A DNA stretch of 64,000 bases from Elusimicrobiota bacterium (GTDB taxonomy: Bacteria > Elusimicrobiota > Elusimicrobia > UBA1565 > UBA9628): assembly GCA_027319565.1 (NCBI GenBank), contig DAHVNA010000001.1, forward strand, positions 139,526 to 203,525, read 5' to 3'. Below are positions 3,674 to 57,435 of the stretch, piece after piece. The notes under the pieces were generated by a model. That model did not search any database, was not told the DNA's origin, and was given only the letters and a program-made list of their open reading frames with translations. The position numbers and the translations under genes are program-made. The first letter of the stretch is position 1, and every line of letters begins with the position of its first letter.

Positions 3674-3678
3674 CGAAC

Positions 3679-29285: not shown

Positions 29286-29353
29286 CTAGGCCTTTTGTTG
29301 GCGCGAGTCTGGGCCTTTAGGCCCAGGGAAAAAATGGGCGTTTAGCTTATACT
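29286..29353 (+). promoter_or_regulatory. Double GGCC-box promoter (copy A)
   Basis: CTAGGCCTTTTG (29286), CTGGGCCTTTAGGCCC (29309), TATACT (29348); same spacing as the copy at 57298. Confidence 0.7.
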
Positions 29354-29357
29354 AATA

Positions 29358-30422
29358 ATGATGAAGGAAAAACTCTTCAAATTCCGAAAATTCCGATGGG
29401 GAATTGGGTTTCTCGCGTTATGGATGGGGTTTCCCGTTTGGGCTCTTGAGTCTTCCGCGCGCTTTGAAGAGCCGGTTCCAATTAATTTACATTCTTTTTC
29501 CAATGCCGTCCAACCCAATGATGTTTTGCCCGATCTGGGAAATTCTCCGAAAGAGATTTCTTTCCCAAGCGAAATTTTTCATAGAAAAGAGCGCCTTTTA
29601 AGTCCTCAGGTTCCTTTAGCTAGACCCCATGATCTAGCAGACAACGATCCTGCTCGGGGCTTTGTGCCATTTGAGAGAGTTGTCGAAAATTCCCCAAAAT
29701 CCGTATTTCAGACGAAAACCGCTTCTCGCCTCAATCAGGAGTCGTTTAAAAGTCCTGTTAGCGGCGGGGTTCTTTTTGACGGCGCTCAAGAAAAAGAGGG
29801 GCCGTGGAAATACGATTTGGAGGGAGCGTTGTGGTTTTCCGGTCAACAGGCGCAACTGATAGGTTCCGGTTCTTATGGGCGCGTTTTTGCGCATCCCGCT
29901 AATCAAGACTGGGTCGTTAAAGTGATTCACGGCAGCAGGATTTACGGGGCGACCGCGTTTTATGAACATCCGGAATTTTCCAATCTTGAGAAATTGTCTC
30001 AAGCCCATCTTTCTCCGCGCCCGATAGATACGGGTCTCATAAATGGCATTCCCTATATTATTTCAGAGCGGGTGCATGGCGCGACCTTAGGAGACATCAT
30101 TGGCGAGAAAAAATTTGGCATTAGGGAGTTAAAATTATTGCGGCAGATGTTTAACTCTCTTTTAAAGAGCCGGTTTTCCATCGTCGATCTAACCCCCAGC
30201 AATGTCATGTTGGGGCATACGGCGTCTAATCCAGAACCCCAAGCCTATATTATTGACGCGGGGCTTTTAACTTCGATTAGCGTTTTTGCTAATCCTTTTA
30301 TTGATATCCAAGATTTGGTGAAAGATTGCAACGATTTGCTACGCCGATCAGGGAGCGTTCGAAAAATCGAGTTTGCGCGCCGGGAGATTGGTCATAAAGC
30401 CGCGCTTTTTTTCTCGCGTTAA
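29358..30422 (+). CDS. Signal-peptide-bearing protein kinase-like protein
   Basis: Signal ..GFPVWA; low-complexity leader to VLFDG; IGSGSYGRVF, VVK, DLTPSN, IIDAG. Confidence 0.8.
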   Translation: MMKEKLFKFRKFRWGIGFLALWMGFPVWALESSARFEEPVPINLHSFSNAVQPNDVLPDLGNSPKEISFPSEIFHRKERLLSPQVPLARPHDLADNDPARGFVPFERVVENSPKSVFQTKTASRLNQESFKSPVSGGVLFDGAQEKEGPWKYDLEGALWFSGQQAQLIGSGSYGRVFAHPANQDWVVKVIHGSRIYGATAFYEHPEFSNLEKLSQAHLSPRPIDTGLINGIPYIISERVHGATLGDIIGEKKFGIRELKLLRQMFNSLLKSRFSIVDLTPSNVMLGHTASNPEPQAYIIDAGLLTSISVFANPFIDIQDLVKDCNDLLRRSGSVRKIEFARREIGHKAALFFSR

Positions 30423-30426
30423 TTTA

Positions 30427-32640
30427 ATGAAGATATCTGCTCAAATTCTGTGGAGCCTTTTTCTTTTGATTTCTGCTCCCTTTTCTTATGCCGCTTCCGG
30501 CTGGGTTGAGGCGGATCCTGCGGGAGGCTTTTCAAAATATAACCCGGCGACCGTCGACCGGATTGAGTTTGGGAATCAATTTCAGAATCAGGGAATGGAT
30601 CAATGGTGCGATCGATTCCCTCTCATCGTGCCCCTCAGTCAAGACTTTGTCAACGGTTTGGGGCCGGGAAGTTTGTTGGTCGGGGGAACTTTTTCGGGAA
30701 CTAGACAATTTCTCCGCTATCCCGATGGCAGTCTTGCTCTCAACGATCAATTGGAAATTAAATTTCAAAGCGGATATGCGATGACCGCCGTCAAGAGCGC
30801 GGCAGGCATTTCTCAGAGGGCTTTAGGGGTTTACGCGGGGGTTTCCGTCGATGGGCAGTCGATTGTCACCCGTCCGCTTCACACCGCTGACTCTTGCAGC
30901 CAGGTCAAACGCCTTCTCAACGTGCTTGACTTTAAAACCGTTCTCCCGCTCAATGCCAAGAGAATTTCAAAAATGGAAGTGGGGGAATTGTGGGAAATTC
31001 CGCTGGTCTATCAGATTTCTTTTGAGCCTTTGGACGCGGCCCAGGTCCTGGAAACTCCGGGGTCTTTTACGCCTTTTTCCGCTTATTTCGCGATAGGCTT
31101 GTCTAAAACCGCGGACCCCACCGTGACTCTTTTTAGAAAATCTTCGCACGATTTGCGCCTCAAAATCCATTTCGATCAATTTAAGACCGTCAGCGCTTCC
31201 GGCGGAGCGGTCGTAGGGCCGATTCCAGCCACCGATATTGGAACTCCGGGAATTGAGTCGCTTTTATCGAACATGCTTCCGAATCTTATCTCGAATCCCG
31301 CGCTTAAACTTTTAACGCGAGAGGTGGATGATTATCTCGCGGCCCAGATTGCGGTTTTAGTCTCTCAAGAGCGCGGCGGGCAAATTTTACTCGAATACCG
31401 CTTGGATCCCGCCAATCAAAAACAGATGGAAGAACTCGCCAAGCTTTTGAAAGGCGATTTGAGCGTTCTTTCAGCGATGAAAAATCTGTTGGTCGACTGG
31501 AGGGGACGAGAAAACAAAGATATCGAAAAAACCCTCAACGCTTTAAGGCAAAGGCATTTGGAACATTTGCGCGTTTCCGAATCCTTGTCCGGTTTTGATC
31601 ATTATCGACAGAGTCTTAAAACGCTCAATTTTTCGGTTCCGTTTCTTTTTAATTACAGCGGCTCGGTCGCGCGGAACACCGATCATTATGTGATCGCAGC
31701 GCCCCGAGGTCTTGAGTTCTATTCCTATAAGTCTCAAAAACAATCGAATTGGGGATTTTTAAAGCCCCCGATTGTGGGCTCTTCGTTGAGGCATAATCAG
31801 AGTCAAAGCGTGCAATCCCTTGTTTTTCTCAATGCGCGCCACGCTTCTAAAAATAAGGATGAGCAATTAATAGTTTATAACCGGGAAACCGGCATTTTGC
31901 GCTTGGGAGATATCCAGCAGGAGTTGTCTCGAATTGATTCTTTGATTGCCTCTATCGGGTCTCTTCAAAATTTTCCGCCTGAGGCGGAAATTCCCAAAAA
32001 ACTCAAGGATCTTGTTTCCGGTTCCGAACATAAAGGCTATGCGGAGTTAAGCGTGATTTTGACTCCAAAAGCGATTCATCAAATTATTTCTTCTTCCTCG
32101 GAATCTGTTCTCCGTGCCTTTGAGCTTTCGCTTTCCGGCGGCAACCGCGCGGTCTTTGACTATGCCCTCAAATATTCAAGATTATCGGCCGATGGCAGCC
32201 TGCATTTTAAGCGTTCTTTTGTCCGACACTTGGACGAACTGAATTTGCCGGATCCAACCCGAAAAAGGCCGGAAATGGTTTTATCCAAGGCCGGGGTTTT
32301 ATTTCACGAAGTCGAGCTTCTAATTTCTGATTTAAAGAGAGCGAAAAACATTCCTTCTCCGGAACAGCAATCAAAAGAGATTCTTAAGATATTGGACGGC
32401 AGTTCCCATTGGTTTGAGTCTTACTCTGGATATGGCCGGGTGGTTGAAGTTCTGTTGCGTCTTGCGCCGCGAGACGGGGTGGCCGCCGATTTGTTTTTCC
32501 ATGTAGACAAAAAGAAAACCGATTCCTCAAACCCGAGCAAGCGCTATTTATTTAGCCCAGATATTCTCAGCCAGGCTTCTCTGCGCGCGATTAGCGCCGT
32601 TGAGCGTTCCTTTATGCCGCCGACTTCGCTCAACGATTGA
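30427..32640 (+). CDS. Large exported hypothetical protein (about 737 aa from ATG 30427)
   Basis: MKISAQILWSLFLLISAPFSYA signal peptide; long open frame directly after the kinase. Confidence 0.8.
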   Translation: MKISAQILWSLFLLISAPFSYAASGWVEADPAGGFSKYNPATVDRIEFGNQFQNQGMDQWCDRFPLIVPLSQDFVNGLGPGSLLVGGTFSGTRQFLRYPDGSLALNDQLEIKFQSGYAMTAVKSAAGISQRALGVYAGVSVDGQSIVTRPLHTADSCSQVKRLLNVLDFKTVLPLNAKRISKMEVGELWEIPLVYQISFEPLDAAQVLETPGSFTPFSAYFAIGLSKTADPTVTLFRKSSHDLRLKIHFDQFKTVSASGGAVVGPIPATDIGTPGIESLLSNMLPNLISNPALKLLTREVDDYLAAQIAVLVSQERGGQILLEYRLDPANQKQMEELAKLLKGDLSVLSAMKNLLVDWRGRENKDIEKTLNALRQRHLEHLRVSESLSGFDHYRQSLKTLNFSVPFLFNYSGSVARNTDHYVIAAPRGLEFYSYKSQKQSNWGFLKPPIVGSSLRHNQSQSVQSLVFLNARHASKNKDEQLIVYNRETGILRLGDIQQELSRIDSLIASIGSLQNFPPEAEIPKKLKDLVSGSEHKGYAELSVILTPKAIHQIISSSSESVLRAFELSLSGGNRAVFDYALKYSRLSADGSLHFKRSFVRHLDELNLPDPTRKRPEMVLSKAGVLFHEVELLISDLKRAKNIPSPEQQSKEILKILDGSSHWFESYSGYGRVVEVLLRLAPRDGVAADLFFHVDKKKTDSSNPSKRYLFSPDILSQASLRAISAVERSFMPPTSLND

Positions 32641-33375
32641 TTAGAACCCGACGCCAATGTTAAGCTCGTAGCCGGAAATGCCATGGAATATCATGTAGGC
32701 TCCTCTGAGATCCACAAAGGGGAAAGGGGTGATGTCGATGCCGGCCGCCAAACGCGAACCCGTGGCTGTTGCCGCGAGCCCATCAAGGCCAGCGATTTGG
32801 GCCGTGTTGATTGTCGCTCTAGTGTCGTCAAAGCCCGCGCCGATAAAGGGCTGAACGATCGGCAGTCTCCAGATCGCGCTGAGGTCTCCTGATAAATGAG
32901 TCATCGAAAAGGCGCTGTCGTTGATCATGTCTCCCATCGCGGAAACCTCGACCGTCGGTAAAAAGAAAAGGAGGCGGGATGGAGTGAAGAGTCCATAGCG
33001 AAGGCCTCCACCTAAAACCGTCGCGCCATCGTAGCTAAATCCATGAGCTACGACGTCTAAATGAAAGGGAAGCCCTAATGTTCCCTGAACCATTGGCAAG
33101 CCGAACGCCCCGGCGCCGCTGTTTTTTAGGACGATGTCATTTGAATTGGGGGCGGTTTGCGCTACTCCAACAAGTCCCAGGGAAAAACCGGGGAAACCAT
33201 CCGGCGCTGTCGGGTCAAATTCCGCGCCTCCAAGAACTCCTCCGATATCGAGCGCAAAAGGCTTGAGCGCCTGGGAATTGATGAGTGACGAAAATTGATT
33301 AAAGGGTCCCGCCCAGGACCATAGCGGCAAAGATAACGGCATTAACGCCAACAAAAACAGAAATATTTTTTTCAT
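32641..33375 (-). CDS. Putative outer-membrane beta-barrel protein
   Basis: Signal peptide, alternating Gly/aromatic strands, terminal YELNIGVGF beta-signal. Confidence 0.7.
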   Translation of the reverse strand: MKKIFLFLLALMPLSLPLWSWAGPFNQFSSLINSQALKPFALDIGGVLGGAEFDPTAPDGFPGFSLGLVGVAQTAPNSNDIVLKNSGAGAFGLPMVQGTLGLPFHLDVVAHGFSYDGATVLGGGLRYGLFTPSRLLFFLPTVEVSAMGDMINDSAFSMTHLSGDLSAIWRLPIVQPFIGAGFDDTRATINTAQIAGLDGLAATATGSRLAAGIDITPFPFVDLRGAYMIFHGISGYELNIGVGF

Positions 33376-33408
33376 GAAGAAAGGATATCAAAATTTTAGG
33401 AGAAATCT

Positions 33409-34611
33409 TTAATGAGATTTGAAAATGTCGGCTAAGGTCGTTAGTATGACGATATTTTTTGCCCCGGAATAGGACAGGCCGTTGATGAGGCGCATGGCAT
33501 GTCTCCAGGATTTTTTGCAAGTATTGAGCTCGTTTGAATATTTGAGAATTTCATTGCGGATTTCTTGCCGCATCGTCTTTGACCAATAACGCTTGGCCCT
33601 AGAATAGTTATCCTTGGCCTTTTGATATTTTTCCATGGACAATAAAAATTGCTTATGGCCGGAGTCGAGCAAATCCAGAACTTTTTCTTTGAGCGTTGGG
33701 GTGGGCAAGATTTCCAGTTTTTGCTTAGCTTTTTCCATTTCCACTTCCAGACGAGCTTTGAGAATCAGCGGTTCAGGAACGCTTCTTAGTTTTTTGGATA
33801 GACCGATAGCCTGGGTCGTCCACAGCCACCATTTGGTGATATCGAACTGATGCCAGTAAATTCCATTTCTCCAATCCGCCGGAAATTTGTGATGAAAATT
33901 GTGATAACCCTCGCCGAATGTCAAAGGGGCTAAAAGCCAGTTGTCGCGAGCCGAGTTACTCATTGAATAGGGCTTTCCGCCCCAAACATGGGCGGCGGAA
34001 TTAATCAGGAAGGTCATATGATGAACCACGACCATTCTAAAAAGGCCGCCCCATAAAAACCCGCCGAGAGGGTGTCCCAAGATTAGGCCCAGCATTGTCG
34101 GCAGTCCAAAAGAGACCGCGACGACTAAAAAAGGGTACCAGCGGTCTTGCCAGAGAACAAGAGGATCTTTCGTTAAGTCCGGGGCGTTTTTCTTTCTCTG
34201 TTCCGCGAAGGGATCGGTGTAAAAAATCCACCCCATATGGGCGTAGAAAAAACCTTTTCCGATATTGTAGGGATCTTTTTCGCTGTCGACATACCGGTGG
34301 TGATCGCGGTGATCCGAGGCCCAGCTAAGAACTGAATTTTGGGCCGCCGCCGCGCCAAAAATGAGATAGAAAAGCTGGAGGGGTTTGCCGCATTCATAGC
34401 TTCGATGGGAATAGTAGCGGTGGTATCCGGCGGTGATAGAAAGACCGGTGGCCAAATACATAAGCGCGAACACGAAGAGATTGGCCCATGGAAATCCGTA
34501 ATGGATTAAATACCATATCGCTCCCAAGAGAGCGGCGGTTGGAGTGGATGTCAGCCAAAAGAGATTGAGGTAGTTGATTTCTCTTTTTGGCTGTTGTGGT
34601 TGGGTCTCCAC
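33409..34611 (-). CDS. Membrane fatty-acid (delta-9 type) desaturase
   Basis: His boxes HRYYSH, HRDHHR, GEGYHNFHH; INSAAH. Confidence 0.93.
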   Translation of the reverse strand: METQPQQPKREINYLNLFWLTSTPTAALLGAIWYLIHYGFPWANLFVFALMYLATGLSITAGYHRYYSHRSYECGKPLQLFYLIFGAAAAQNSVLSWASDHRDHHRYVDSEKDPYNIGKGFFYAHMGWIFYTDPFAEQRKKNAPDLTKDPLVLWQDRWYPFLVVAVSFGLPTMLGLILGHPLGGFLWGGLFRMVVVHHMTFLINSAAHVWGGKPYSMSNSARDNWLLAPLTFGEGYHNFHHKFPADWRNGIYWHQFDITKWWLWTTQAIGLSKKLRSVPEPLILKARLEVEMEKAKQKLEILPTPTLKEKVLDLLDSGHKQFLLSMEKYQKAKDNYSRAKRYWSKTMRQEIRNEILKYSNELNTCKKSWRHAMRLINGLSYSGAKNIVILTTLADIFKSH

Positions 34612-34618
34612 AAAGGGC

Positions 34619-35932
34619 CTAGTAGCGGTAATTCTCGGTCTTGTAAGGTCCTTTGGGGTTAATTCCTAGATATTCCGCCTGTTTTTGATTGAGTTGCGTC
34701 AGATGAGCTCCGAGCTTATCTAAATGGATTCGCGCCACTCTCTCATCGAGCAGTTTGGGCAGGGTATAGACCTTGTTTTCGTATTTCTTATTCTCGCGAT
34801 TGGACCATAATTCGATCTGGGCGAGAACTTGGTTGGAAAACGAGATGCTCATCACAAAGGAGGGGTGCCCCGAGGCGCATCCAAGGTTCACTAAGCGTCC
34901 TTCGGCCAGGACGATCAAAACTTTTCCATCCGGCCAGGTGAATTGATCGACCTGCGGCTTGACCGTCGTTCTTTTGAGTTTTTTGTCGTTCATTAAAGAA
35001 GCGACATCAATTTCAAGGTCGAAGTGCCCGATATTGCAGACGATCGCGTGGGATTTCATCGCGTCCATATGCTTTTTAGTGATGACATCGCAGCAACCGG
35101 TGGCGGTCACGAAAATATCTCCGATGGGAGCGGCTTCATCCATCGTGATGACGGAAAAGCCTTCCATGGAGGCTTGGAGAGCGGTAATAGGATCGATTTC
35201 GGTCACTAGAACTCGGGCCCCCATTCCTTTAAACGATTGCGCGCAGCCTTTGCCGACATCTCCATATCCGCAGACGACCGCGATTTTCCCCGCGATCATG
35301 ACATCGGTGGCGCGTTTAATGCCGTCCAAAAGCGATTCTCTGCAGCCGTAGAGATTGTCGAATTTAGACTTGGTGCAGGAATCATTGACGTTAATGGCCG
35401 GAACCTTGAGTTTTCCTTGGGCCTCCCGTTGATACAGGCGATGAACCCCGGTCGTGGTCTCTTCCGACAAGCCGGCGATATCTTTTAAGAGATGGGGATA
35501 CTTGTCGTGAATAATGTTTGTCAGGTCGCCGCCGTCATCGAGCAGAAGATTGGGGCCGAGTCCGCCTTCAAATTGGAGAGTTTGCTCAATGCACCAATCA
35601 TATTCCTCAAGAGTTTCTCCCTTCCAGGCAAAAACGGGAATTCCCGCTTGGGCAATCGCCGCGGCGGCATGATCTTGAGTCGAGAAAATATTGCAAGAAC
35701 TCCAGCGGACTTCCGCCCCCAATTGAATCAGGGTTTCAATTAAGACAGCCGTTTCAATGGTCATATGGAGGCATCCGGCGATTCGTGCCCCTTTGAGCGG
35801 TTTTTTGCCGCGATATTCCGCCCTTAAAGACATCAGCCCTGGCATTTCCGCTTCGGCTAAAGCGATTTCCTTTCTTCCCCAATCGGCAAGAGTGATATCT
35901 TTGACTTTGTAATCCATGGCGGCGGTCGGCAT
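34619..35932 (-). CDS. ahcY: S-adenosylhomocysteine hydrolase (start reassigned to ATG 35932)
   Basis: [53 protein letters not shown] before ATG 35932. Confidence 0.97.
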
Positions 35933-36030
35933 AAATTTCTCCTTCCCAAGGCGAGACTTGGGCATTTTTTTACTAGCACTAACCACTTTATTGTAGCAAA
36001 ACTCGCTATTGATGAGATACAATAAATGTC

Positions 36031-36624
36031 ATGAATAAAATCAACAGCCGTATTGCCGAGGAATTGACGGAAAGCGGGCGGGTCATCTCTCAGTCCGCTC
36101 AAATGGCCCCTTTGCTTGAGAAAGTAGCCGAAGAATTGGTGTCTTGTTATCGTCGCGGCAACAAGATATTGACTTTTGGAAATGGCGGATCGGCTTGCGA
36201 TGCCCAAAATTTCGCCGACGAACTCGTTGGCCGTTTCGAGCGCAATCGCCCACCCCTTCCGGCATTGGCTTTGACCACTAACACTTCGGATCTCACCTCA
36301 ATATCCAACGATTTCGGTTATGAGGTTGTCTTTGCAAGGCAACTTGAGGCCCATGCCAAGCCCGGAGATATCGCGGTGGCGATATCGACCTCGGGAAACT
36401 CCAAAAATGTCCTTTTGGCCGCAGAAGCGGCAAAAAAATTAGGGCTTTTAGTCATCGGTCTTTCTGGAGAAAGCGGGGGGAAACTCAAAAATATCGCTGA
36501 CTTCTGCGTTTGCGTCCCGTCTAAGACCGTCGCGCGCATCCAAGAGGCGCATATCGCCATCATTCAAATCTGGTGCGGGATTATTGAGGACTCTCTTTTC
36601 CCGAATGCGCCAAAAGCCCATTGA
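36031..36624 (+). CDS. gmhA: D-sedoheptulose-7-phosphate isomerase
   Basis: GNGGSACDAQ, SNDFGY, STSGNS, RIQEAH. Confidence 0.95.
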   Translation: MNKINSRIAEELTESGRVISQSAQMAPLLEKVAEELVSCYRRGNKILTFGNGGSACDAQNFADELVGRFERNRPPLPALALTTNTSDLTSISNDFGYEVVFARQLEAHAKPGDIAVAISTSGNSKNVLLAAEAAKKLGLLVIGLSGESGGKLKNIADFCVCVPSKTVARIQEAHIAIIQIWCGIIEDSLFPNAPKAH

Positions 36625-37103
36625 GACCGGCGATGGGAGAGATCGTTTCTTTAAAGACAGCCGCGCTGATCCGCCAAAGCCTGAAAAAAAAACATAAGAC
36701 GGTTGTTTTTACCAATGGAGTCTTCGATATTTTGCACGCCGGTCATGTTCAGGTTCTGGAGCGGGCTAAAAAAATGGGAGATGTTTTAATTCTAGGCCTT
36801 AACCGCGATGAGTCGGTTCGCCTATTGGGAAAAGGCCCGGGCCGCCCGCTCAACCGCTTTAAAGACCGTGCCCGAGTTTTAGCGGCATTGTCGGCTGTTG
36901 ACTACGTCGTTGGGTTTAAGGAAAAAACCCCTGAGAAGACGATTCGGGTTTTAAGGCCCGATATCCTGGTTAAGGGCGCCGACTATTCAAAAAACCAAAT
37001 CGCGGGCGCCGCCTTTGCCGGGAAAGTCGTCCGTATCGCGCTTAAAAAAGGCTATTCAACGACAGCCCTGGTCAAAAAAATTCAGGGGTTATCCGCCGCC
37101 TGA
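36621..37103 (+). CDS. rfaE2: Heptose-1-phosphate adenylyltransferase (RfaE domain II)
   Basis: FTNGVFDILHAGH, KGPGRP, PDILVKGADY, GYSTT. Confidence 0.92.
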   Translation: MRPAMGEIVSLKTAALIRQSLKKKHKTVVFTNGVFDILHAGHVQVLERAKKMGDVLILGLNRDESVRLLGKGPGRPLNRFKDRARVLAALSAVDYVVGFKEKTPEKTIRVLRPDILVKGADYSKNQIAGAAFAGKVVRIALKKGYSTTALVKKIQGLSAA

Positions 37104-37633
37104 GTTTTCGCCGGTTTCTTTTTTTGGCGCGTTTTTGACTGGGGCGATTTAATTTTTTCCTTGCCCTTATTATTGGCGTTTAATTTTTCAAGCTCCGCGA
37201 TTTTCTCTTGCGCTTTTTTAACGTCTTTGAGTAGCGGGCTTGAAGGGTGGGATTTTTCAAACGCGCTTAGATCCGCTTGGGCTTGTTTGAGCTTTCCGGA
37301 GACGACTTCCTTAACGGCGGCGGCGAATTCCTTTCGTTCTTTGAGAGTTTGTTCTCTTTGGGAAACATTAGATTTCTCCCAAGTTGGTTGATTGAGTTTG
37401 GAGAGGTCTTGTTTGCTTCCGCGCACAGCCGCGACCGCGACTAAGTCGTTTCTATTTTCGTAGCTTTGTCCTACCGATGAGGCGGAGAGGCTTTGTTCCA
37501 GTTGAGTAAACCAATTCATCAGTAGTGTCGTGGTCGATTGCGCTTTTTGAGGCGGTGGCGCCTGTCCTTCGTCAGCCTTCGATGAACCGACGGCGAAGAC
37601 GCTCAACGCGAGCGCAAGGATTATTTTTTTCAT
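37082..37633 (-). CDS. Exported helical hypothetical protein
   Basis: MKKIILALALSVFAVGSSKA signal; AVAAVRG motif; TPR-like FEKSHPSSPL; coupled to the upstream gene. Confidence 0.75.
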   Translation of the reverse strand: MKKIILALALSVFAVGSSKADEGQAPPPQKAQSTTTLLMNWFTQLEQSLSASSVGQSYENRNDLVAVAAVRGSKQDLSKLNQPTWEKSNVSQREQTLKERKEFAAAVKEVVSGKLKQAQADLSAFEKSHPSSPLLKDVKKAQEKIAELEKLNANNKGKEKIKSPQSKTRQKKKPAKTQAADNP

Positions 37634-41124: not shown

Positions 41125-41393
41125 GATAACACGAGCATATCAATTTTTTGAGCTTTTTAGTCAATCAAGTCAATCTAAAACCAAAGTATAATGGGAAAAT
41201 CGCGCTTTTTCAAGTGGGGATACTGCTAAAGCGGCGTTGTGGATATCTCCCGGCAACAAAAAGGAATCTTCCTTAGCTTCGGTCTAATGGACCGCTGAAT
41301 TAAGCCAACCGCGTTTGCGGGCTTCTAGGATTTCGGCGGTATAGGCCTCTTTTAGTTTGCCCAATCTGCCTGCTATTGAGTATGATAGGCTGA

Positions 41394-42838: not shown

Positions 42839-42902
42839 CGCTCGGCCCTTTTTAGCCCCAAGGGTTTTAACAAAACAAAATTTAAATGGTATTCTGTTTA
42901 AA

Positions 42903-44893: not shown

Positions 44894-44906
44894 GGAGGGC
44901 GTTTTA

Positions 44907-47891: not shown

Positions 47892-47893
47892 AG

Positions 47894-48847
47894 ATGATTA
47901 AAAAGAAAATTCAGATTCGATCGGCGGAAGAGGCGGTCGGACTTTTAGGCGAGGCCGATTCGGCTTTAAGGGAGATGCAGGGTCATTACGGCGTTCAACT
48001 TTTTTTGCGGCAAGATTCCGATTCCGAAGAATTGGCGTTGTGGGTTAAAGGCAATGCGACTCGGGTAGAGAGAGCGATGAAAAAAATTAGGCAGAAACTA
48101 AGCGATTTGCGCGGCGAAACCGAAGGCCCAGATTCTCCTTCTGGGTTTTCCCGCGAACATATTTTGACTGGGGCCGACCAAGAGGCTTACCGGACCTCTT
48201 TTGGAAAAATGATTTCTCCCCGGACTCCCAATCAGGGGCGCTATATCGAAGCGATTGAAAATCATGATTTGGTTTTTGGAATCGGTCCGGCGGGAACCGG
48301 TAAAACCTTTTTAGCCGTTGCCTGCGCGCTCAAAGCCCTCGATATGCGGCAAATTCAGCGCATTGTCGTTACCCGGCCGGTGGTCGAGGCCGGAGAAAAG
48401 CTAGGCTTTTTGCCTGGGGACCTTTTAGAGAAAGTGGATCCCTATCTCAGGCCAATTTATGATTCATTTTATTCGCTCTTGGGCCCCGAACGTTTTCGCA
48501 TGTGGCGGGAGACGGAAGTCCTTGAAATCGTCCCTTTGGCTTATATGCGCGGGCGCACGTTTGAGAACGCCTTTATTATTTTAGATGAGGCTCAAAATAC
48601 CACGCCGGAACAAATGAAGATGTTTTTGACTCGCATGGGCCAAGGATCGAAGGCTGTCGTGACCGGAGATATTACGCAGACCGATTTGACTTCAATTAAA
48701 GCCTCGGGGCTCGTCCAGATTCTGGAAATTCTTAAAAATGTAGAGGGAATCGTGTTTCATCAGTTTGGACAGGAAGACGTCATTCGCCATCCGCTGATCA
48801 AAAATATCCTCAACGCATATGAAAAGTGGGAAAAGCGTCATTGCTAG
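47894..48847 (+). CDS. phoH: PhoH-like ATPase
   Basis: [34 protein letters not shown]. Confidence 0.95.
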
Positions 48848-48902
48848 GCCCCGACTTCCATCGGTGATGAATTATAAAAGAATTTGTGAACCACTGCGTT
48901 AG
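48836..48902. repeat. Degenerate REP/MITE remnant between phoH and ybeY
   Basis: CGTCATTGCTAGGCCCCGAC..TCGG plus AATTTGTGAACCACTGCGTTAG, whose reverse complement resembles the left end of the element at 17939. Confidence 0.5.
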
Positions 48903-48908
48903 AACAGA

Positions 48909-49328
48909 ATGAAAATTTCCGTGTTTAAAACTGGGCTTTTGCCCGCTTCGGCCCGAAAGACCGAGAAGTTCCGCTTGGCCGCTCATCTTGCCTTGGGTAA
49001 AGCCGGTCAAGAGAAGGGCAGTCTCAATATTATTTTCATGAATTCAAGAGAAATGCGCTCTCTCAATAAAGAATTTCTCGGCCATGATTATGACACCGAC
49101 GTCATTTCTTTTCCCTACGATGAAAAGCCCGCTTTTGGAGATATTTTTGTTTCCGTGCCTCAGGCGCGGCGGCAGGCCAGCGAAGTGGGGCATCCCCTTT
49201 TGCGCGAAATTCTCACCTTGATTATTCACGGGGTTTTGCATTTAAGAGGCTATCGCGATGACAAACCCGCGCTTAAGAAAAAGATGTTTAAAGAACAGGA
49301 TCGCCTGCTGGGATTGTTGAACATTTAA
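48909..49328 (+). CDS. ybeY: rRNA maturation endoribonuclease YbeY
   Basis: TDVISF, GDIFVS, HGVLHLRGY. Confidence 0.93.
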   Translation: MKISVFKTGLLPASARKTEKFRLAAHLALGKAGQEKGSLNIIFMNSREMRSLNKEFLGHDYDTDVISFPYDEKPAFGDIFVSVPQARRQASEVGHPLLREILTLIIHGVLHLRGYRDDKPALKKKMFKEQDRLLGLLNI

Positions 49329-49486
49329 TTTTTTTCTTTCATCTGTCCGGACAGCCGACATCAACGCCTCCTTCTGTCTTTTTTCATCATTCTGGCAGTT
49401 GGTAAAACCCGCAAAGACCCATTGATGGAGCGGAAAAATGGGGCTACACTCTTTGGGTTGCGCGTTTTCGCGGAAGGGAGCCTCGC

Positions 49487-49903
49487 ATGAGAAAAATATT
49501 GTTTTCAGCCGCCAAAATTCTCCCCGCTAATTCCGGCGAAACAATTAACTCCAAAAATTCCAACAGGAGGCGATCAATGATTCAGAGATTAATGACGACT
49601 CCAATCAATAAAACAGTAAGGACGTAGATACGCCTTGCGGCAATTCTCGTGGCGGGCTTCCTGATAGCGGGAAATTATCAAGGATTTATCGCTCCCATAT
49701 CCGATTGGATTGAAATACACATTCCTCACTGGGCCGCAAACGCAGATGTAATCATTGTGTCTTTATTCCCTATTACTCTTGAGTTGCCAAGGGACTCGGA
49801 AGCATCTTACTTGGCCGTCGTGATGTTTTCTCCTTTTATACTCATTTATGAGCCATGTTCCAGAATAGCGCTGAATTATCTCAATGGGGGAACGTCAGCG
49901 TGA
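49487..49903 (+). pseudogene. Small membrane protein gene interrupted by an in-frame TAG (49625)
   Basis: ATG 49487, ATG 49577 (AGGAGG RBS) and the 49649..49903 ORF share one frame with a single TAG between them; upstream TTGATG-17-TACACT. Confidence 0.4.
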
Positions 49904-50229
49904 AGACATGAGGGAAATATGGATAGTCCTCACAATGTGGGTAAAACATGAGGGGAAAGGTGATGAAGAATAAGTCTAATTTGAGAGAATAGAAATAAGT
50001 TTCTATTCTGTATTTATGCTTCCTCATCTCCGGCGGCGGCGATGATCTGACCCCGCCAATCTGGAAAGACGACAGCGGCCAAGAGCCTTTCTTCCCATTA
50101 TTTTGACCTTGAGCAACCCGAGGACCGCCTCCGGTTGGATATACGCTGGGATGAAATTTCCCGTCCCGCCTTCGCGGCGATTCAAAAGCTTAGGCAGGAA
50201 GATTGTGCCCGCCGCAAAATCTCCGCTTG

Positions 50230-51351
50230 CTACTTTAACAGCGACTTATGCTTGACGATAACGGCTTTTTCCCGCAAGGACTTGATATATTTGTCCATCA
50301 GCTTGTGGCTTTCGACGTCCATTAAAACTTCCTTAAGATAATTCTTGAATTTATCGAATTCCGGCTTTTCCGCCGCTTGATGAGATTTGACGCGGACGAT
50401 ATTGTAACCTTCGTCGTTTAAAAGCGGATCGCTGATTTGACCGACGTCTAGAGAAAAAACCGCTTTATCTAAAGCGGGCGGCAAGGCGCCCCTAGGAATA
50501 AACCCGATGTCCCCGCCATTGGGAGCGCTATTGGGATCTTCCGAATAAGTTTTAGCGATTTCCGAAAAAGTGGACGTTCCGTCCATCAACATGGCTTTAT
50601 ACTGATTAGCGTCTCTTAAGGCCCGCGTTTTTTCCGCTTTGGGATCGTTGGGGGATACGCGGACTAGAATTCGGGCCAGTTGAACCCGCTCCGATGTCGA
50701 GGATTTTACTCTTTCCACAGCCATCAAAAAATCTTGAGCGGCATATGGGGTCATTCCCGCCGGGGGTTCGGTGCTGCCGGAGGCGATGTATTGAGTGATC
50801 TCATTAAAATAAGCCTGAATTTCCGGGGTCGCTGGCGGTTCAACCTTTGATTTTACCTCCTGATCCAAAACTTTCTTGGCCATGACTTGTTTTTCAAGGC
50901 GTTTGCGGTATTGCTGGTAGGTGAGGCCCATGGCTTTAAGCTGTTTGTCGAAAGCGGCTTGGGCTTCTAGAGGGCTCAGCGGGTTTCCATTCTCATCGAC
51001 GTTAAAACGAGATTTTATTTCCGCCAGAGCCTTGTCGATATCATCTTGATGAATTTTAATTTTTAAATCCTTGCCGGCCTGATAGAGAAGCTGTTGATCG
51101 ATTAAATCATCAAGCACCTTGCCTTTTATTTGCTGGATGAAAGCGGGGTCTCTCATTGCCATGGGGTTGGACTGCGCCATATCGTTTAAGGTCGCGGCTA
51201 GTTCCTTGCGATAGCGCGACAAAAAAATCGGCGCGTTGTTGACGGTCGCGATGACGTCATCAACGCGGGCCGCTGTCGCCGATTTGAGAAAAATGAATGC
51301 GCAGGTAAAGCCTAAAACGGCGGTCAACAGTCGTCTATTTGAATTGTTCAT
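50230..51351 (-). CDS. SurA-like periplasmic chaperone/parvulin PPIase
   Basis: VIATVNNAPI, LDDLIDQQLL, AKTYSED..GGDIGF, LREKAVI. Confidence 0.9.
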   Translation of the reverse strand: MNNSNRRLLTAVLGFTCAFIFLKSATAARVDDVIATVNNAPIFLSRYRKELAATLNDMAQSNPMAMRDPAFIQQIKGKVLDDLIDQQLLYQAGKDLKIKIHQDDIDKALAEIKSRFNVDENGNPLSPLEAQAAFDKQLKAMGLTYQQYRKRLEKQVMAKKVLDQEVKSKVEPPATPEIQAYFNEITQYIASGSTEPPAGMTPYAAQDFLMAVERVKSSTSERVQLARILVRVSPNDPKAEKTRALRDANQYKAMLMDGTSTFSEIAKTYSEDPNSAPNGGDIGFIPRGALPPALDKAVFSLDVGQISDPLLNDEGYNIVRVKSHQAAEKPEFDKFKNYLKEVLMDVESHKLMDKYIKSLREKAVIVKHKSLLK

Positions 51352-52150
51352 CGAGTATCTCCACGGGGAACTTTTTTTGAAGCGATTGCAAGTAGTTGTC
51401 TAATTTCTGTTTTTCAAGAATTTGGATAAAACGATCTTTATATTTTTCAAAAACCACTTTATGCTGAGAGTCTTTGCGGATGACGTGATATCCAAATTTG
51501 GTCTTAATCGGCCCGCTGAGTTCTCCTACCCGCATTTGAAAAATGAGATCCTGAAGTTCGGGAATAATCTCTCCATAGAGGGCGGAAGGCATTTTCCCGC
51601 CTTTGACGGCCGAACCGCTGTCGAGAGAATATTTCCGCGCGAGCCGTGCGAAATTAGCGCCGCGGCGTATTCGCTTAAGAAGGGTTTCCGCGTCTTTTGG
51701 AGATGAAACTAATATCTGGCTAAAGACGACTTCATATGGATGTCTTTTCCAATAGGATTTCGCTTCATCTTCGCTGACCTTGGTGATGCGGGTATCCCTT
51801 AAGTTTTTTTCCCAATCTTGAATCAACAGGTATTTTAAGGCTTCGTGGAGGCGCAATTTTTCTTCTTCTTTGATTTTAGACGCTTCTTTTAGATATTCGG
51901 GAGACTCAGGTACTTTAGAGGCTTGCGCGGCGGCCAATTCTAATTTATCGCGGATGAGAATGTCCAAAAACTGTTTTCTTCCGTCCGGGGTCATCACGTA
52001 ATTTTGATACCCCGGGTCCACCTCGTTAAGGGCTTTTTGAAAATCCTCTTGGGTAATCGACAGAGGCCCTACCGTCGCGATCACGGCCTGGCGCTTCTGA
52101 CAAGCGGTTAGAGAAAAAACCGCCAGGCTGATTAAAAAAATCCTTCTCAT
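51335..52150 (-). CDS. PpiC-type peptidylprolyl isomerase lipoprotein (PrsA-like)
   Basis: Lipobox LTAC; QILV, FARLARKYSLD..GG, TKFGYHVI. Confidence 0.9.
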   Translation of the reverse strand: MRRIFLISLAVFSLTACQKRQAVIATVGPLSITQEDFQKALNEVDPGYQNYVMTPDGRKQFLDILIRDKLELAAAQASKVPESPEYLKEASKIKEEEKLRLHEALKYLLIQDWEKNLRDTRITKVSEDEAKSYWKRHPYEVVFSQILVSSPKDAETLLKRIRRGANFARLARKYSLDSGSAVKGGKMPSALYGEIIPELQDLIFQMRVGELSGPIKTKFGYHVIRKDSQHKVVFEKYKDRFIQILEKQKLDNYLQSLQKKFPVEILDEQFK

Positions 52151-52167
52151 AATCAGTATTTATCCTA

Positions 52168-55100
52168 TCATTTTTCAAAGAACGCGCCGAGCCACTCAAG
52201 AGCGCTTTGACCCTTAAGAGAAATGACGAGTCCGTCTCCCTGCTTGGAACTGGTAAAGCGAATATCTTGCGAATATTTTTGGGTCCAACGTTGAATCTGT
52301 TCCGGGGCGATTTTTGCGGCAGAGCCGAAAATCAGCTCAAGCTCGTTTTTTCGTTGGGAAATTTTGACGATTCCGATTTCGGCGGCCGATATTTTTATCC
52401 TAATGAGATTGAAAAGATTGATCACCGGATCGGGAAGAGGCCCCGCTAAGTCTTCCATTTCCTTTCGGATGGTTTCTAAATCCTCTTTTCTCGCGGAACT
52501 AAGCCTTCGGTAAAGTTCCAAGCGCTGCCTTTCCTCGGGGAAGTAGTCTTGGGGAATAAAGGCCGATAGCGGGAGATCTAGCGTCGTTTCTTCCGTTGGG
52601 AAGCGCGCGCTGGGGCTTTTCTTCTGGAGACTAGAGACTTCCTCCGTTAAAAGTTGGCTGTAGAGAGAAATTCCCACGTCGCGGACAAACCCGTGTTGGC
52701 GGCGTCCCAAAAGGTCTCCGGTTCCGCGAATCTCCATGTCTCGCATCGCCAGTTGCGCCCCGCTTCCCAAGTGGCCAAATTCCTTGAGCGCCTCAAGGCG
52801 TTTTTGCGCTTCTTCCGATATTCGGGAAAATTCCGCGTCCTTGGGATAAAGAAAATAGCAGAACGCTTTTTTTGATTCGCGTCCGATTCTCCCGCGCAAT
52901 TGATAGAGTTGCGCTAGTCCGAACTCATGCGCGTCTTCGACGAGAAGAGTGTTCACCGATGGAATATCAAGCCCCGATTCGATAATGGTAGAGGCCACTA
53001 AAACGTCAAATTTCTTTTTGTAGAAGTCCCACATCGCGCTTTCAATCTCAGAGCCTTTCATCTGCCCGTGAACGATGACAAATCGAGTCGACGGCATTAA
53101 ATCCTTGAGGTGATCCGTGGTTTCTTTCAGGGTTCTGACGCGGTTGTGAACATAATAGGCTTGTCCGCCGCGGGCGATTTCCTCTTCGATGGCGCTAATG
53201 ACAGTTTCTTCGCTCCAGGGCAAAATGCGCGTCGTAATCGGCAAGCGTCCGGCGGGGGCGCTCTGGATAAAAGAGAGAGATCTCAGTCCCGACAATGCTT
53301 GCCCGAAGGTTCGGGGAATTGGAGTGGCCGACAAGGAAAGAACGTCTAGCGTCGCGCGAAAGCGCTTTATTTTTTCTTTATCTTCGACTCCAAAGCGGTG
53401 TTCTTCATCGATAACAGCCAACCCCAAATCCTTAAACCGGATATCTTTTTGAAGAAGCCGCGCGGTGCCAATGACGATGTCGACACGCCCCTCTGTCAGC
53501 TTTTCAATGACGGCTTTTTGCTCTGAGGGGCTTTGAAAGCGGGTGAGAAGACCCAGGCTTATGGGATAATCGGCGAATCTTTTTGAAAAACTCCGGAAGT
53601 GTTGCTCGGCTAGGATGGTAGTCGGGACCAGAACGCAGGTCTGTTTGTTTCCCATCGCGCATTTAAAGGAGGCGCGCATCGCCACTTCGGTTTTTCCAAA
53701 TCCGACGTCTCCTAAAACTAAACGGTCCATCGGCTGGGGCTTGGACATGTCTTCTAATACCTCGGCAATTGCGCGCGCTTGATCGGGAGTTTCTTGATAG
53801 GGAAATTCTTCGGCAAACTCCCGTTCGAGGGGATTATCCTTGGGGAAGGCATATCCCGGAGATGAGGCGCGTTCGGCTTGGGTTTTAAGGAGCTTTTCGG
53901 CCAGTTCTCTGACGCCTTCCCGCACTCGTTCCTTGATTTCTTCCCAGCGTCTTTGATCGAGGCTTGAAAGACGCGGGCGCCCGGAAGAGCCCGAGACGTA
54001 TTTTTGTATGGCTGAGAACTCGCTCATCGGCAGATAGAGAACGGAGTCTCCGGCAAATGAAAGCCGGGCGCATTCAACCTGTCCAAAGCCGGGCGAGCGA
54101 ATCATTTGAAGCCCGCCGTAGCGGGCGATCCCATAATCGCGGTGAACGACATAGTCTCCTTTTTGAAGATCCGAAGAATGGAGGCGGATCGGAGAGGGAA
54201 TCGGGTAAGACAAGGCGCGGCGATATCTCCGATTGAAAATTTCCGAGGAGCTGTAGAAAGCGACTTTAAATTTCGGATGGATAAAACCGTTTCCAATTTC
54301 GCCGATCAAAAATTGGCAGCTCTCTTTGAGCGAATTGGGGAATATCTCTTGAATTCTGGAATTCTCGCCTTGGTTAAGACTGTAGATAAAAACCTTAAAT
54401 CCTTCTTGATTGAGTTTTTGAATTTCCTTAAACGCCTGTTCGGCGATTCCGTCCGTCGGCGGGTTGGATCTCGCCCCAAAATCGATATCTTGACTGGAGG
54501 TCTCAAGAAGGCGTCCCGCCCATATCCAACGCTTTTCGGGCGCGGTAAAATTTTCTGGCAGGACAAGACCGTCTTCCGCAATCCACAGCGCGTTTGAGAG
54601 AAAACTTTGACCGAGCCAATTCCATAATGGCGCGGAATCGATCTGGGCGCTTTCGGAAGAGGCGGGAACGGCTTGGGCTTTTAAAATAGTTCCAGAGCTC
54701 ATTTGCGTGCCGGGGTCAAAGGAGCGCAGGGAAGCGATTTTATTTCCATCAAAAAGAATTCGCGTAGGATTTTCGGAATTGGGGCTATAAAAATCAAGGA
54801 TCGCTCCGCGAATCGCGAAATCACCGGGAGATTCGACGAAATCCGAACGCAGGTAACCCAATTGGATTAAATTTTGAGCGGCTTCATCGCGATTGAGCGC
54901 GGTGTCAACAGAGAAAGCGAGAGTTCTCTGTCGGAAAAACTGCGGAGAGGGAACTTTGGCCTCCAGGGCTTTAAGATTTAAGACAAATAAAGCGGTGTCG
55001 GGATTAATGAGCGAAAGGTTTTTGAGCCTTTGCGGCTGGTCTTCTCCAAAAACAGCGGAGATTAATTTTAAATTTTTTGGAAACAAGGGAGTCAGCGCGG

Positions 55101-55260
55101 AAAAAGCGGAGTTGATTTCTTCAATGCGCTCTTCCTCGTTGACGAGAAACACGAGCGGACCGTTTAAAGCCGGGAGAAAAGAAATTTCTTTTTTGGAAAG
55201 ATAAAGTTGCGCGAGGTACGCCCAGGCGGAAGCGGTCGGCAGTCCGATCAGGCGCGGCAT
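52168..55260 (-). CDS. mfd: Transcription-repair coupling factor
   Basis: GDYVVHRDYGI, ETPDQ, GDVGFGKTEVA, DEEHRFG, SATPIPRT, QLRGRIGR, RDMEIRG. Confidence 0.97.
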   Translation of the reverse strand: MPRLIGLPTASAWAYLAQLYLSKKEISFLPALNGPLVFLVNEEERIEEINSAFSALTPLFPKNLKLISAVFGEDQPQRLKNLSLINPDTALFVLNLKALEAKVPSPQFFRQRTLAFSVDTALNRDEAAQNLIQLGYLRSDFVESPGDFAIRGAILDFYSPNSENPTRILFDGNKIASLRSFDPGTQMSSGTILKAQAVPASSESAQIDSAPLWNWLGQSFLSNALWIAEDGLVLPENFTAPEKRWIWAGRLLETSSQDIDFGARSNPPTDGIAEQAFKEIQKLNQEGFKVFIYSLNQGENSRIQEIFPNSLKESCQFLIGEIGNGFIHPKFKVAFYSSSEIFNRRYRRALSYPIPSPIRLHSSDLQKGDYVVHRDYGIARYGGLQMIRSPGFGQVECARLSFAGDSVLYLPMSEFSAIQKYVSGSSGRPRLSSLDQRRWEEIKERVREGVRELAEKLLKTQAERASSPGYAFPKDNPLEREFAEEFPYQETPDQARAIAEVLEDMSKPQPMDRLVLGDVGFGKTEVAMRASFKCAMGNKQTCVLVPTTILAEQHFRSFSKRFADYPISLGLLTRFQSPSEQKAVIEKLTEGRVDIVIGTARLLQKDIRFKDLGLAVIDEEHRFGVEDKEKIKRFRATLDVLSLSATPIPRTFGQALSGLRSLSFIQSAPAGRLPITTRILPWSEETVISAIEEEIARGGQAYYVHNRVRTLKETTDHLKDLMPSTRFVIVHGQMKGSEIESAMWDFYKKKFDVLVASTIIESGLDIPSVNTLLVEDAHEFGLAQLYQLRGRIGRESKKAFCYFLYPKDAEFSRISEEAQKRLEALKEFGHLGSGAQLAMRDMEIRGTGDLLGRRQHGFVRDVGISLYSQLLTEEVSSLQKKSPSARFPTEETTLDLPLSAFIPQDYFPEERQRLELYRRLSSARKEDLETIRKEMEDLAGPLPDPVINLFNLIRIKISAAEIGIVKISQRKNELELIFGSAAKIAPEQIQRWTQKYSQDIRFTSSKQGDGLVISLKGQSALEWLGAFFEK

Positions 55261-56169
55261 TTAGGTTAAGGCGACTTGGCGCGCGAGCTCTTTGAGAAAT
55301 GAGGATCTTAGGCTTGTGTCCTTGCAAAGAGACTTGAGATGCCGGGCCTGGCTTCCGTCTTCGCGGGCCAAGAAAACCCGCATTTCAATTCCCTCGGGCT
55401 TAATCTCGGCAAAGGCGCCCAGCGGAGTCGAGCATCCGCCGCCGACCAGGCGCAAGAATTCTCTTTCCCATTCAACCGCGATTCGGGTCGGCCCGTGATC
55501 GAGAATTTGAGAAAAAAGACGCAGATCGTCTTTGAGGCGGGATTCAATGGCCAAGGCGCCTTGCCCGGGGGCCGGGACCATCGCGTCAAGTTCAATGAAG
55601 TGAGCCAGGGGAATTTCCCGCTTAAGCCTCTTGAGTCCTGCGGCCGCTAAAATAATTCCGTCCAAGGATTTTTCTTCCAATTTTTTTAGCCGGGTGTCTA
55701 CGTTGCCGCGAAGAGGTGTTGTCGTCACTCCCGGAAAAAGGATTTTGGTCTGGATTTGTCTTCTCAGGGAAGAAGTGCCGATTTTGTGTTCCGCCTTAAG
55801 CTCTTTCCATTTAAGCCCGTCGCGTCCGATAAAAACGTCTTGCGGGTTTTCCCGTTCCGGGTAGGCCAAGATATGGAGTTCTTCCGGAATTTCAGCGGGC
55901 ATGTCTTTCGCGCTGTGGACGGCTAAATCAATTTCTTTTTTGAGCAGGGCTTCTTCGATTTCCTTGACGAACAGCCCCTTGGTCCCTTGGGGAGACAAGG
56001 AGGCGGCATGCGCTTCCTGGGGGGAATGATTCTGAAACAAATCTCCCGAGGTCTTGATGATTTTGAGTTCGGTTTCTACAGAGGGGTCTATTTCCTTAAG
56101 TCGGCTCTCAACCCAGTGGCTTTGGGCCAGGGCCAGGGGCGAGCCTCGCGTTCCAATTTTTAGCTTCAC
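55261..56169 (-). CDS. hemC: Hydroxymethylbilane synthase
   Basis: GTRGSPLALAQ, KGLFVKE, VHSAKD, GTSSLRR, RGNVDTR, GGCSTP. Confidence 0.97.
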   Translation of the reverse strand: MKLKIGTRGSPLALAQSHWVESRLKEIDPSVETELKIIKTSGDLFQNHSPQEAHAASLSPQGTKGLFVKEIEEALLKKEIDLAVHSAKDMPAEIPEELHILAYPERENPQDVFIGRDGLKWKELKAEHKIGTSSLRRQIQTKILFPGVTTTPLRGNVDTRLKKLEEKSLDGIILAAAGLKRLKREIPLAHFIELDAMVPAPGQGALAIESRLKDDLRLFSQILDHGPTRIAVEWEREFLRLVGGGCSTPLGAFAEIKPEGIEMRVFLAREDGSQARHLKSLCKDTSLRSSFLKELARQVALT

Positions 56170-56209
56170 TTAATCATTGTAGAAAATTCCAATTTTCTAT
56201 AATCACGAG

Positions 56210-57280
56210 ATGCCGCAAAAACCGTTTCTTAAATGGATCGAAATTGATTTAAAGGCCATTCGCTCTAATCTTGATTGGATTATTTCCGAGTCAAGGCCCC
56301 TGACCCAGGTGATGGCGGTTTTAAAAGCGGATGCATATGGGCACGGGATGATTCCCGTGGCGAGAGAAGCGGTCAAGGCCGGCGTTCCTTTTATAGGGGT
56401 TTTAAGCGTGGATGAGGCCCGGCAGCTTAGAAGCGCGGGAATTTCTCATCCTCTTTGTTTAATGGCGCCGATTTTGCCGTCCCTGGCCGAAGAGGCGGTT
56501 AAACTTAAAACTTCGGTGACGGTCGATAATCTGGAGCAGTTGCGCGCGCTCAATGCCAAGGCATCCTTTTCTCATCCCGTTTCCGTCCATATTGATTTGG
56601 ATTTCGGCCTTGGCCGTTGGGGAATTTCTCCGCGGCGGATAGCTTGGTTTGTCTTGAGTCTCAAGCGCTTTAAGAAAATCCGTTTTCAAGGCCTTTCCGC
56701 TCATATCGATTATATTCCCGGGAAAAACGCAGTCGAGGCGGAGGAAAAATTGCGCGATTTTAACCAGATCGCTCAGCGGCTTAAAAAAACGCATCCGGGT
56801 TTAATTTGTCATGCCGCCAATAGTTCTGTTTTTCTTGATTTTCCTCATTGGAGAATGGATCTGGCTCGAATCGGGAATTTAATTTACGGAATTAACGCCG
56901 CGAAATCAAAACCGGTTCCGCTTAAAAATCCCTGGCGCTTTCAGGCGCGAATCGTCCATATCCGCGCGATTGCCGCTGGCGAGTCCGTGGGATACGCGAG
57001 CGCCTACGTTTCTCCGAGGGAAATGAAGGTCGCGACCCTCTTGGCCGGATACTCCGATGGAATCACGATGGAGCCCGCCGAGAGGCTGATTCGCCTGGGT
57101 TCCGGCTTTGAGTATTGGGGAATGATGGGGAAAAACAAGACGCCGTTTATCGGCGGCTGCGGAATTTCCCATCTGCTGGTGGACGTTAGCGAAATTCCCC
57201 GCGCTAATGTCGGAGATATCATCACTCTTCCGGCGCGCCGCACTGCCGCTCATTCCCGGATTCCGCGGGTCTACATTTAA
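56210..57280 (+). CDS. alr: Alanine racemase family PLP enzyme (divergent)
   Basis: VLKADAYGHG (PLP Lys), HAANSS, GESVGY, GYSDG, RIPRVY. Confidence 0.8.
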   Translation: MPQKPFLKWIEIDLKAIRSNLDWIISESRPLTQVMAVLKADAYGHGMIPVAREAVKAGVPFIGVLSVDEARQLRSAGISHPLCLMAPILPSLAEEAVKLKTSVTVDNLEQLRALNAKASFSHPVSVHIDLDFGLGRWGISPRRIAWFVLSLKRFKKIRFQGLSAHIDYIPGKNAVEAEEKLRDFNQIAQRLKKTHPGLICHAANSSVFLDFPHWRMDLARIGNLIYGINAAKSKPVPLKNPWRFQARIVHIRAIAAGESVGYASAYVSPREMKVATLLAGYSDGITMEPAERLIRLGSGFEYWGMMGKNKTPFIGGCGISHLLVDVSEIPRANVGDIITLPARRTAAHSRIPRVYI

Positions 57281-57297
57281 TGATAGACAGCTCTCAA

Positions 57298-57365
57298 CTG
57301 GGTCTTTTGCCGGGAAAGCTCTAGGCCTTTTGGCCCTTGGGGTCTGTTGTATTGTTCGATACAAT
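57298..57365 (+). promoter_or_regulatory. Double GGCC-box promoter (copy B)
   Basis: CTGGGTCTTTTG (57298), CTAGGCCTTTTGGCCC (57321), TACAAT (57360); spacing identical to copy A. Confidence 0.7.
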
Positions 57366-57435
57366 GATAAGGCCGGATAAAACGGCGCGGGAAAGTGCTT
57401 AAAATCGCTTAACTCATATAAAAAGGAGAATTCCC

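Follow-up and report, generated by a model that had tools for sequence, protein, structure and literature searches.

A double-box promoter element conserved across class Elusimicrobia and its candidate NarL-type regulator

Two unlinked loci in the genome of an Elusimicrobiota bacterium, here called A and B, each carry a pair of GGCC-rich boxes upstream of a -10 element, in the same arrangement. Is this arrangement a coincidence or the mark of a regulon, and, if the latter, which protein reads the boxes and what does it switch on? The window, which is the whole stretch of DNA analysed (64,000 nt; C23:139526-203525 of source genome G000), belongs to a metagenome-assembled genome (MAG) of 2.03 Mb that is 91.65% complete. 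An earlier note on this DNA had read out three strings at each locus, with offsets of 23 nt from box to box and 23 nt from the second box to the -10, and had proposed a candidate regulon. All six strings and both offsets are present at the two loci (Table 1).

Table 1. Coordinates of the promoter elements, target genes, kinases and candidate regulator. Positions are those of the window, except for the regulator, which is given by genome and contig.
Feature	Position	Strand	Remarks
dCache-HAMP-HisKA sensor kinase	4077..5957	+	Its orthologue in relatives belongs to the operon of the regulator; candidate input
REC-HisKA-HATPase hybrid kinase	5954..7102	+	In relatives, its orthologue immediately precedes the NarL regulator gene; candidate phosphodonor
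Locus A distal (secondary) box	29286..29303	+	Centre about -65.5; G4, G5, C7 and G12 kept
Locus A proximal (primary) 18-bp box	29309..29326	+	Centre -42.5, overlaps the -35 position; 27.9 bits
Locus A sigma70-type -10, TATACT	29348..29353	+	
Target gene A	29358..30422	+	Signal peptide, low-complexity linker with LFDG, protein-kinase-like domain, no TM helix
Exported protein, family not recognised	30373..32640	+	755-aa ORF; likely co-transcribed with gene A
Locus B distal (secondary) box	57298..57315	+	Kept in 5/5 congeners
Locus B proximal 18-bp box	57321..57338	+	Centre -42.5; 29.1 bits
Locus B -10, TACAAT	57360..57365	+	
Target gene B	57436..59271	+	Signal peptide, linker with LFDR, MFS-like membrane domain (MFS_1 E=0.003)
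NarL/LuxR-type response regulator	G000:C56:26123-26884		Candidate binder; soluble REC-HTH protein

Three lines of evidence confirm that the double box is a real promoter-position element, with about 45 copies in the source genome. First, a 13-mer core of the box has 71 matches in the genome, 23 of which are followed exactly 24 nt on by TAnnnT, a pattern that follows at most 4 core matches at any other distance from 10 to 44 nt (binomial p about 6e-30 for 24 nt). A looser core without the T-tract shows the same preference, with TAnnnT at 24 nt in 30 of 207 matches and in at most 8 elsewhere. Second, a position weight matrix (PWM) built from the 23 sites finds 37 sites at 20 bits or more in the genome and none in a Markov-4 simulation, a comparison that is partly circular because the matrix was trained on 23 of the genome's own sites. 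The genome scan that the earlier note had proposed as a check, with its fixed 24-nt distance and 37 sites against 0, thus speaks against chance. From the 54 PWM matches listed, 43 were kept as promoters and 11 were dropped for a low score, for lacking a -10 as well as a suitable downstream gene, or because a distal box had been counted twice; a composite rescan added about 3-4 candidates, which gives the total of about 45. Third, 16 of the 43 promoters have their start codon 6 nt past the -10, and another 4 have it at 7 nt. This distance played no part in the definition of the motif and so supports real promoters, whose mRNAs would be leaderless. The sites are mostly intergenic, and their spacers are unrelated between copies. 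The shared architecture of loci A and B is therefore real, although it is not confined to these loci and the distal spacing, constant between these two, varies from 23 to 25 bp in the genome.

With the -10 at -12 to -7, the proximal box spans -51 to -34 and is centred at -42.5, in agreement with the palindrome noted near -42; the full box, however, is 18 bp long, a near-palindrome with the consensus (t)CTRGGnC-TTTn-GRCCYw. In the logo of proximal boxes the half-site reads R3-G4-G5-n-C7 around an N4 centre, and with pseudocounts G5, C7 and G12 reach 0.95 and C14 reaches 0.89; some of these positions were fixed by the seed pattern, and the same ones are kept in a relaxed scan and in relatives. 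For 22 of 42 promoters, the second box that scores best is 23 bp upstream in forward orientation; others have it at 24 bp, forward (3/42) or reverse (1/42), or at 25 bp, reverse (6/42), which makes 32/42 at 23-25 bp; in the other 10 it is elsewhere or absent. Forward distal boxes have the consensus cTaGGcCtTTTGCCGgaA, which keeps G4, C7 and G12 and has a right half with a consensus of its own, GCCGGA. The complete genome G104 carries mostly reversed distal boxes at 24-25 bp (10/19). At the -35 position, 38 of 43 sites match TTGACA at no more than three of six positions, bearing out the lack of a good -35 seen at loci A and B, and promoters of this kind would be weak without help. Together with the position of the box centre and its fixed distance to the -10, this supports the class II activator geometry that had been assigned to the two loci. 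In class II activator promoters, the CRP/FNR site is at -41.5; there, as here, the activator site abuts or overlaps a weak -35.

The element is conserved across class Elusimicrobia. A fixed strict pattern has 17-23 matches in each of five congeners and is present in 30 of 41 genomes (source genome included), and a reversed-control pattern has none in the same search. In a sample of the phylum, the strict pattern occurs in 52 of 68 genomes of the class and in 0 of 83 outside it, with 3 control matches in all. The candidate regulon is thus borne out, with about 45 units in the source genome and the motif in relatives across the class. Short coiled-coil repeat proteins that lack signals (L069, L074, L076, L078 and L086) likewise lie behind the motif in three relatives (G092, G122 and G034), and one motif copy in G104 (L058, C1:879144-879188, +) has no ORF of at least 50 aa within 260 nt and may serve a small RNA.

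The earlier note did not recognise the motif as a known operator. Here it erred, since the proximal box closely resembles the Dev box of DevR/DosR and the OsdR box, as these appear in the available parts of their descriptions (PMC3177182, PMC5069765). According to the former, DevR boxes are 18 bp long with conserved G3, G4, G5 and C7, secondary boxes keep G4, C7 and G12, and the tgs1 promoter has tandem boxes at -42.5 and -63.5. As far as the accessible sources go, the DevR/DosR regulon of Mycobacterium tuberculosis (NarL subfamily; PDB 3c3w) and the present one share an 18-bp inverted repeat with an N4 centre and conserved G4, G5 and C7, tandem strong and weak boxes with one centred at -42.5, about 45 targets and a K-T-x-K-N recognition helix. 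An inverted repeat with G5 and C7 in each half, in tandem boxes of which one lies near -42.5, is what a NarL/LuxR regulon of DevR-like architecture displays, and both features are present here. The two systems differ in box spacing (23-25 bp here, 21 in DevR) and in the box itself, where the present motif keeps T2 and a T-tract centre and has A or G at position 3. DevR controls hypoxia or dormancy genes, whereas the targets here are exported enzymes; in place of the heme-sensing DosS/DosT, a dCache-HAMP kinase with a REC-HisKA hybrid is the candidate input, and the phylum is another one; the full-length match of the candidate regulator to DevR (E=6e-34) ranks below those to LiaR/VraR-type proteins. 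The spacing, the absence of HisKA_3 from the source genome and the exported hydrolases among the targets exclude the DevR/DosR regulon proper, so that the class-wide regulon appears to be of DevR type in its working without being the DevR regulon itself. The OsdR consensus of Streptomyces coelicolor, AGGGCCGATCGGCCCT, has the same RGGCC-N4-GGCC core, and predicted OsdR sites include secreted proteases; in the part of that study available, OsdR sites lie at varied distances from genes (translation-start offsets in its Table 1), have no T-tract centre and control stress and development genes (PMC5069765). A literature search (top-ranked listings, with subscription journals outside its coverage) found no description of an Elusimicrobia regulon or of the motif. 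The mechanism would thus be of a known kind and the regulon undescribed in the literature searched.

We propose, with a probability of about 0.75, that the boxes are primary and secondary sites of a conserved NarL/LuxR-type response regulator, the C56 protein of Table 1, which would activate the -35-less sigma70 promoters of about 45 units, mostly for predicted-exported proteins. First, the source genome encodes two GerE-domain proteins in all, the C56 protein and a paralogue on C49, and both are response regulators. Both carry K-T-I-K-N (KTIKNH) in alignment with K-T-V-K-N (KTVKNY) of DevR, whose Lys179, Lys182 and Asn183 contact bases according to the available part of a published report (PMC4082495). 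The genome thus encodes a REC-GerE regulator that has the base-reading Lys/Lys/Asn triad, and all 17 sequences of orthologues or close paralogues at 56% identity or more retain KT[IV]KNHLN; the triad also occurs in other PDB matches and in relatives that lack the motif (G102 and G043 among them), and so permits this site without predicting it. Second, in the phylum sample (150 genomes), the motif is found in 51 of 61 genomes with a C56 orthologue (at least 60% identity) and in 0 of 89 without, although this is not an independent statistic because essentially one clade is involved and the identity cut-off partly tracks relatedness; the other 10 of the 61 have no strict-pattern match. Third, G004 and G025 have the motif, and in both the C56 orthologue is the sole GerE protein. 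One genome (G027, 88% complete) has three sites and no orthologue; the adjacent hybrid kinase is missing as well, which fits an assembly gap. As to autoregulation, no box with at most one mismatch lies directly upstream of the regulator in 15 loci, and a rescan of the source genome placed none at the regulator or kinase genes, which counts against the proposal.

Synteny suggests that the signal enters through the two kinases of the window. In many relatives, a histidine kinase, a REC-HisKA hybrid and the regulator are followed by pilus genes that we take to be Tad-like from a pilin-like N-terminal pattern; Pfam gave no match for these pilus genes. The order of hybrid and regulator is visible at six loci (L097, L098, L099, L102, L114 and L115), with the kinase too in all but L115, and the two genes are neighbours by coordinates in further genomes. 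In the source genome, both kinases are in the window and the regulator has been relocated to C56. NarL regulators usually partner with HisKA_3-type kinases, whereas the kinases here are of HisKA type; a search for a HisKA_3 partner in G000, G025 and G094 gave no match. The relocation and the kinase type both count against the proposed reading. By analogy with DevR, phosphorylated dimers of the regulator would occupy both boxes in a cooperative manner, and the dimer at the proximal box would recruit RNA polymerase in class II fashion, so co-inducing the approximately 45 units. Ahead of the dCache kinase, the window encodes an OmpR-type response regulator and a receiver-only protein (2849-4065, +), and a protein with CsgG-like, ankyrin and caspase domains directly follows the hybrid kinase (7099-9165, +). 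An OmpR domain also lies within a few kilobases of the hybrid kinase in G025, G034, G011, G092, G122 and G156, and a search of six f4 genomes gave no OmpR match.

The same class II regulon might be read by another clade-specific protein or by two proteins, the distal box binding a different factor or a C56/C49 heterodimer; we regard this as unlikely, though as the foremost of the alternatives. The 23-25 bp spacing and the distal GCCGGA half differ from DevR and count against the NarL-type regulator. A distal box with its own consensus, which may point to a second factor, and with two geometries would suit another binder, as would the clade-level co-occurrence and the sites of G027. Besides GerE, we checked OmpR, CRP, XRE and sigma domains against the motif. 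An OmpR/PhoB-type binder is rejected by 0 PF00486 matches in six motif-rich f4 genomes, and a CRP/FNR-type binder by the absence of CRP domains from the motif-rich G088 and G166 and of a TGTGA-type half-site from the logo. XRE matches vary from 1 to 7 per genome (counted by domain, not by orthology), and G004 has forward distal boxes at 23 bp with a single GerE protein, which argues against the need for two.

It is improbable that the boxes are repressor operators over the -35 region of weak sigma70 promoters, keeping a secretome off until a signal releases the regulator. The proximal box, extending to -34, would block the -35 position, a TG extended -10 is present in 14 of 43 promoters and TTG often follows the box in family f4, all of which would suit a repressor. 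Such operators could sit in any register, whereas the spacing between box and -10 varies by no more than 1 nt; most sites have a poor -35, and DevR activates with this same geometry. That the element is an RNA hairpin, a terminator or a mobile REP-like repeat is very improbable, since GGGCC-TTTT-GGCCC could fold but the 5-bp arms are mispaired at one position or more in 35 of 43 proximal boxes, and the element lies upstream of the predicted transcription start, mostly between genes, with unrelated spacers and a fixed -10 distance.

What, then, would the NarL-type regulator control? Gene A encodes the kinase-like motifs GxGxxGxV, DLTPSN and IIDAG behind a signal peptide that was called by eye and is missed by our signal-peptide heuristic. 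It has ATGs at 29358 and 29361, and its transcript would be leaderless from the second, which lies at the likely +1. Gene B probably starts at a non-canonical ATC, 7 nt after AGGAG (window 57424-57438, +); its orthologues start with ATT in four of five congeners and with ATC in one, so the non-canonical start is conserved. Rfam gave a single, chance-level match in the locus B leader (E=0.59). The earlier note had given both genes one unusual leader type, and both do have a signal and a linker with LFD, but B reads LFDR instead of LFDG and BLAST finds no significant similarity between the leaders. The ESM Atlas returned no usable match for the locus A leader, and three metatranscriptomes of the same study contain no contig covering locus A.

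Across the genome, predicted export is the common trait. The heuristic, which is crude (it overcalls, flagging 530 of 1904 genes, and misses locus A), finds signal peptides in 36 of 41 mapped first genes and in 177 of 661 other unit-first genes (Fisher p 4e-15); by eye, the first genes without a signal are just a receiver-only protein and a PAS-GGDEF protein. In relatives, signals follow the motif at 16 of 19 loci in G104 and at 21 of 30 in five other genomes, for which 30 of 42 motif matches were taken in. The predicted enrichment of genes with signal and LFD leader therefore stands for export signals, and the LFD leader marks a subset. By a pattern tuned on regulon proteins, 17 genes of the source genome carry it: 12 of the 41 first genes, 2 operon-linked genes and 3 outside the regulon (one without signal, one at a contig edge and one without motif). 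With 0 of 19 targets in G104, it is ruled out as the defining feature of the targets.

The cargo is largely enzymatic where it can be named. Among 42 targets, Pfam leaves 14 without a family and assigns peptidases (three FtsH-like AAA-M41, M1, M48, S8, C1-like, trypsin/PDZ with Rce1, C92 and a weak C39), two lytic transglycosylases, an amidase, a GH15, a LOG-family protein, a nucleotidase with a PQ-loop domain, an MscS, two weak MFS matches, a phosphatase, the locus A kinase and a Clp ATPase. In 20 further genes scanned, operon-linked ones add a PLD, an S1/P1 nuclease and an amylase-like protein, and 12 have no family; the gene at a weaker site is an M3 peptidase. NCBIfam gave no family for 19 of 22 non-regulator proteins. 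Targets in relatives include nucleases, peptidases, an SLT and a Clp, and those of G104 are almost all without a family. The Clp ATPase (G000:C28:11984-14653, -) combines a signal peptide with a disordered linker, keeps two Walker A/B sets intact and lacks TM helices. Close relatives of it occur in 8 of 41 genomes (named are G001, G003, G004, G005, G013, G015 and G025); signal-like N-termini are visible in three congeners, as well as in the two copies of G025, of which one stands behind the motif. Other paralogues of the M1 peptidase, of the LOG protein, of the FtsH-like targets and of the Clp (the last on C78 and C25) are encoded in the source genome. The FtsH-like targets carry TM helices and so could work in the cell's own membrane.

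From this cargo, the output would be an extracellular digestion programme of proteases, wall hydrolases, nucleases and transporters, whose probable objects are other cells or what remains of them. The source genome has 13 T2SS/pilus ATPase matches over the cut-off and 4 secretins in 2 Mb. A bolder reading, which we hold to be possible but rather doubtful, is a class-wide attack or host-contact programme in which one phosphorelay switches wall hydrolases, nucleases, proteases and leader-bearing ATP-dependent enzymes, and signal, linker and LFD form the address for an undescribed two-step delivery route into prey or host. An exported Clp ATPase and protein kinase without TM anchors suggest delivery into another cell's cytoplasm. 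Against delivery stand the G104 targets, nearly all family-less and lacking the LFD leader, and cultured Elusimicrobium minutum, which grows without prey. So does a survey in whose available part the MAGs of Elusimicrobiota rank near the bottom by number of predicted extracellular proteins (PMC11495043).

Nearly all that is known of free-living members of class Elusimicrobia comes from MAGs, and the class gains a defined global regulon together with candidates for its regulator and its sensor pathway. The targets form a catalogue of co-regulated, predicted-exported proteins, many without a family, and offer a way into the question of whether other cells are prey for these bacteria or are digested by them. 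As the class includes the cultured E. minutum and the regulator is a soluble REC-HTH protein, the claim is directly testable.

Two further observations concern individual proteins. Very large proteins in Elusimicrobiota are described in a giant-gene preprint, whose available part mentions no regulon (10.1101/2023.11.21.568195); directly downstream of a regulon gene, the source genome encodes a 4659-aa protein with a signal and an LFDG leader and no Pfam family (G000:C56:31701-45680, +). The two non-exported targets, the receiver-only protein (G000:C89:45986-46429, -) and the PAS-GGDEF cyclase (G000:C24:18343-19215, -), would couple the regulon to c-di-GMP.
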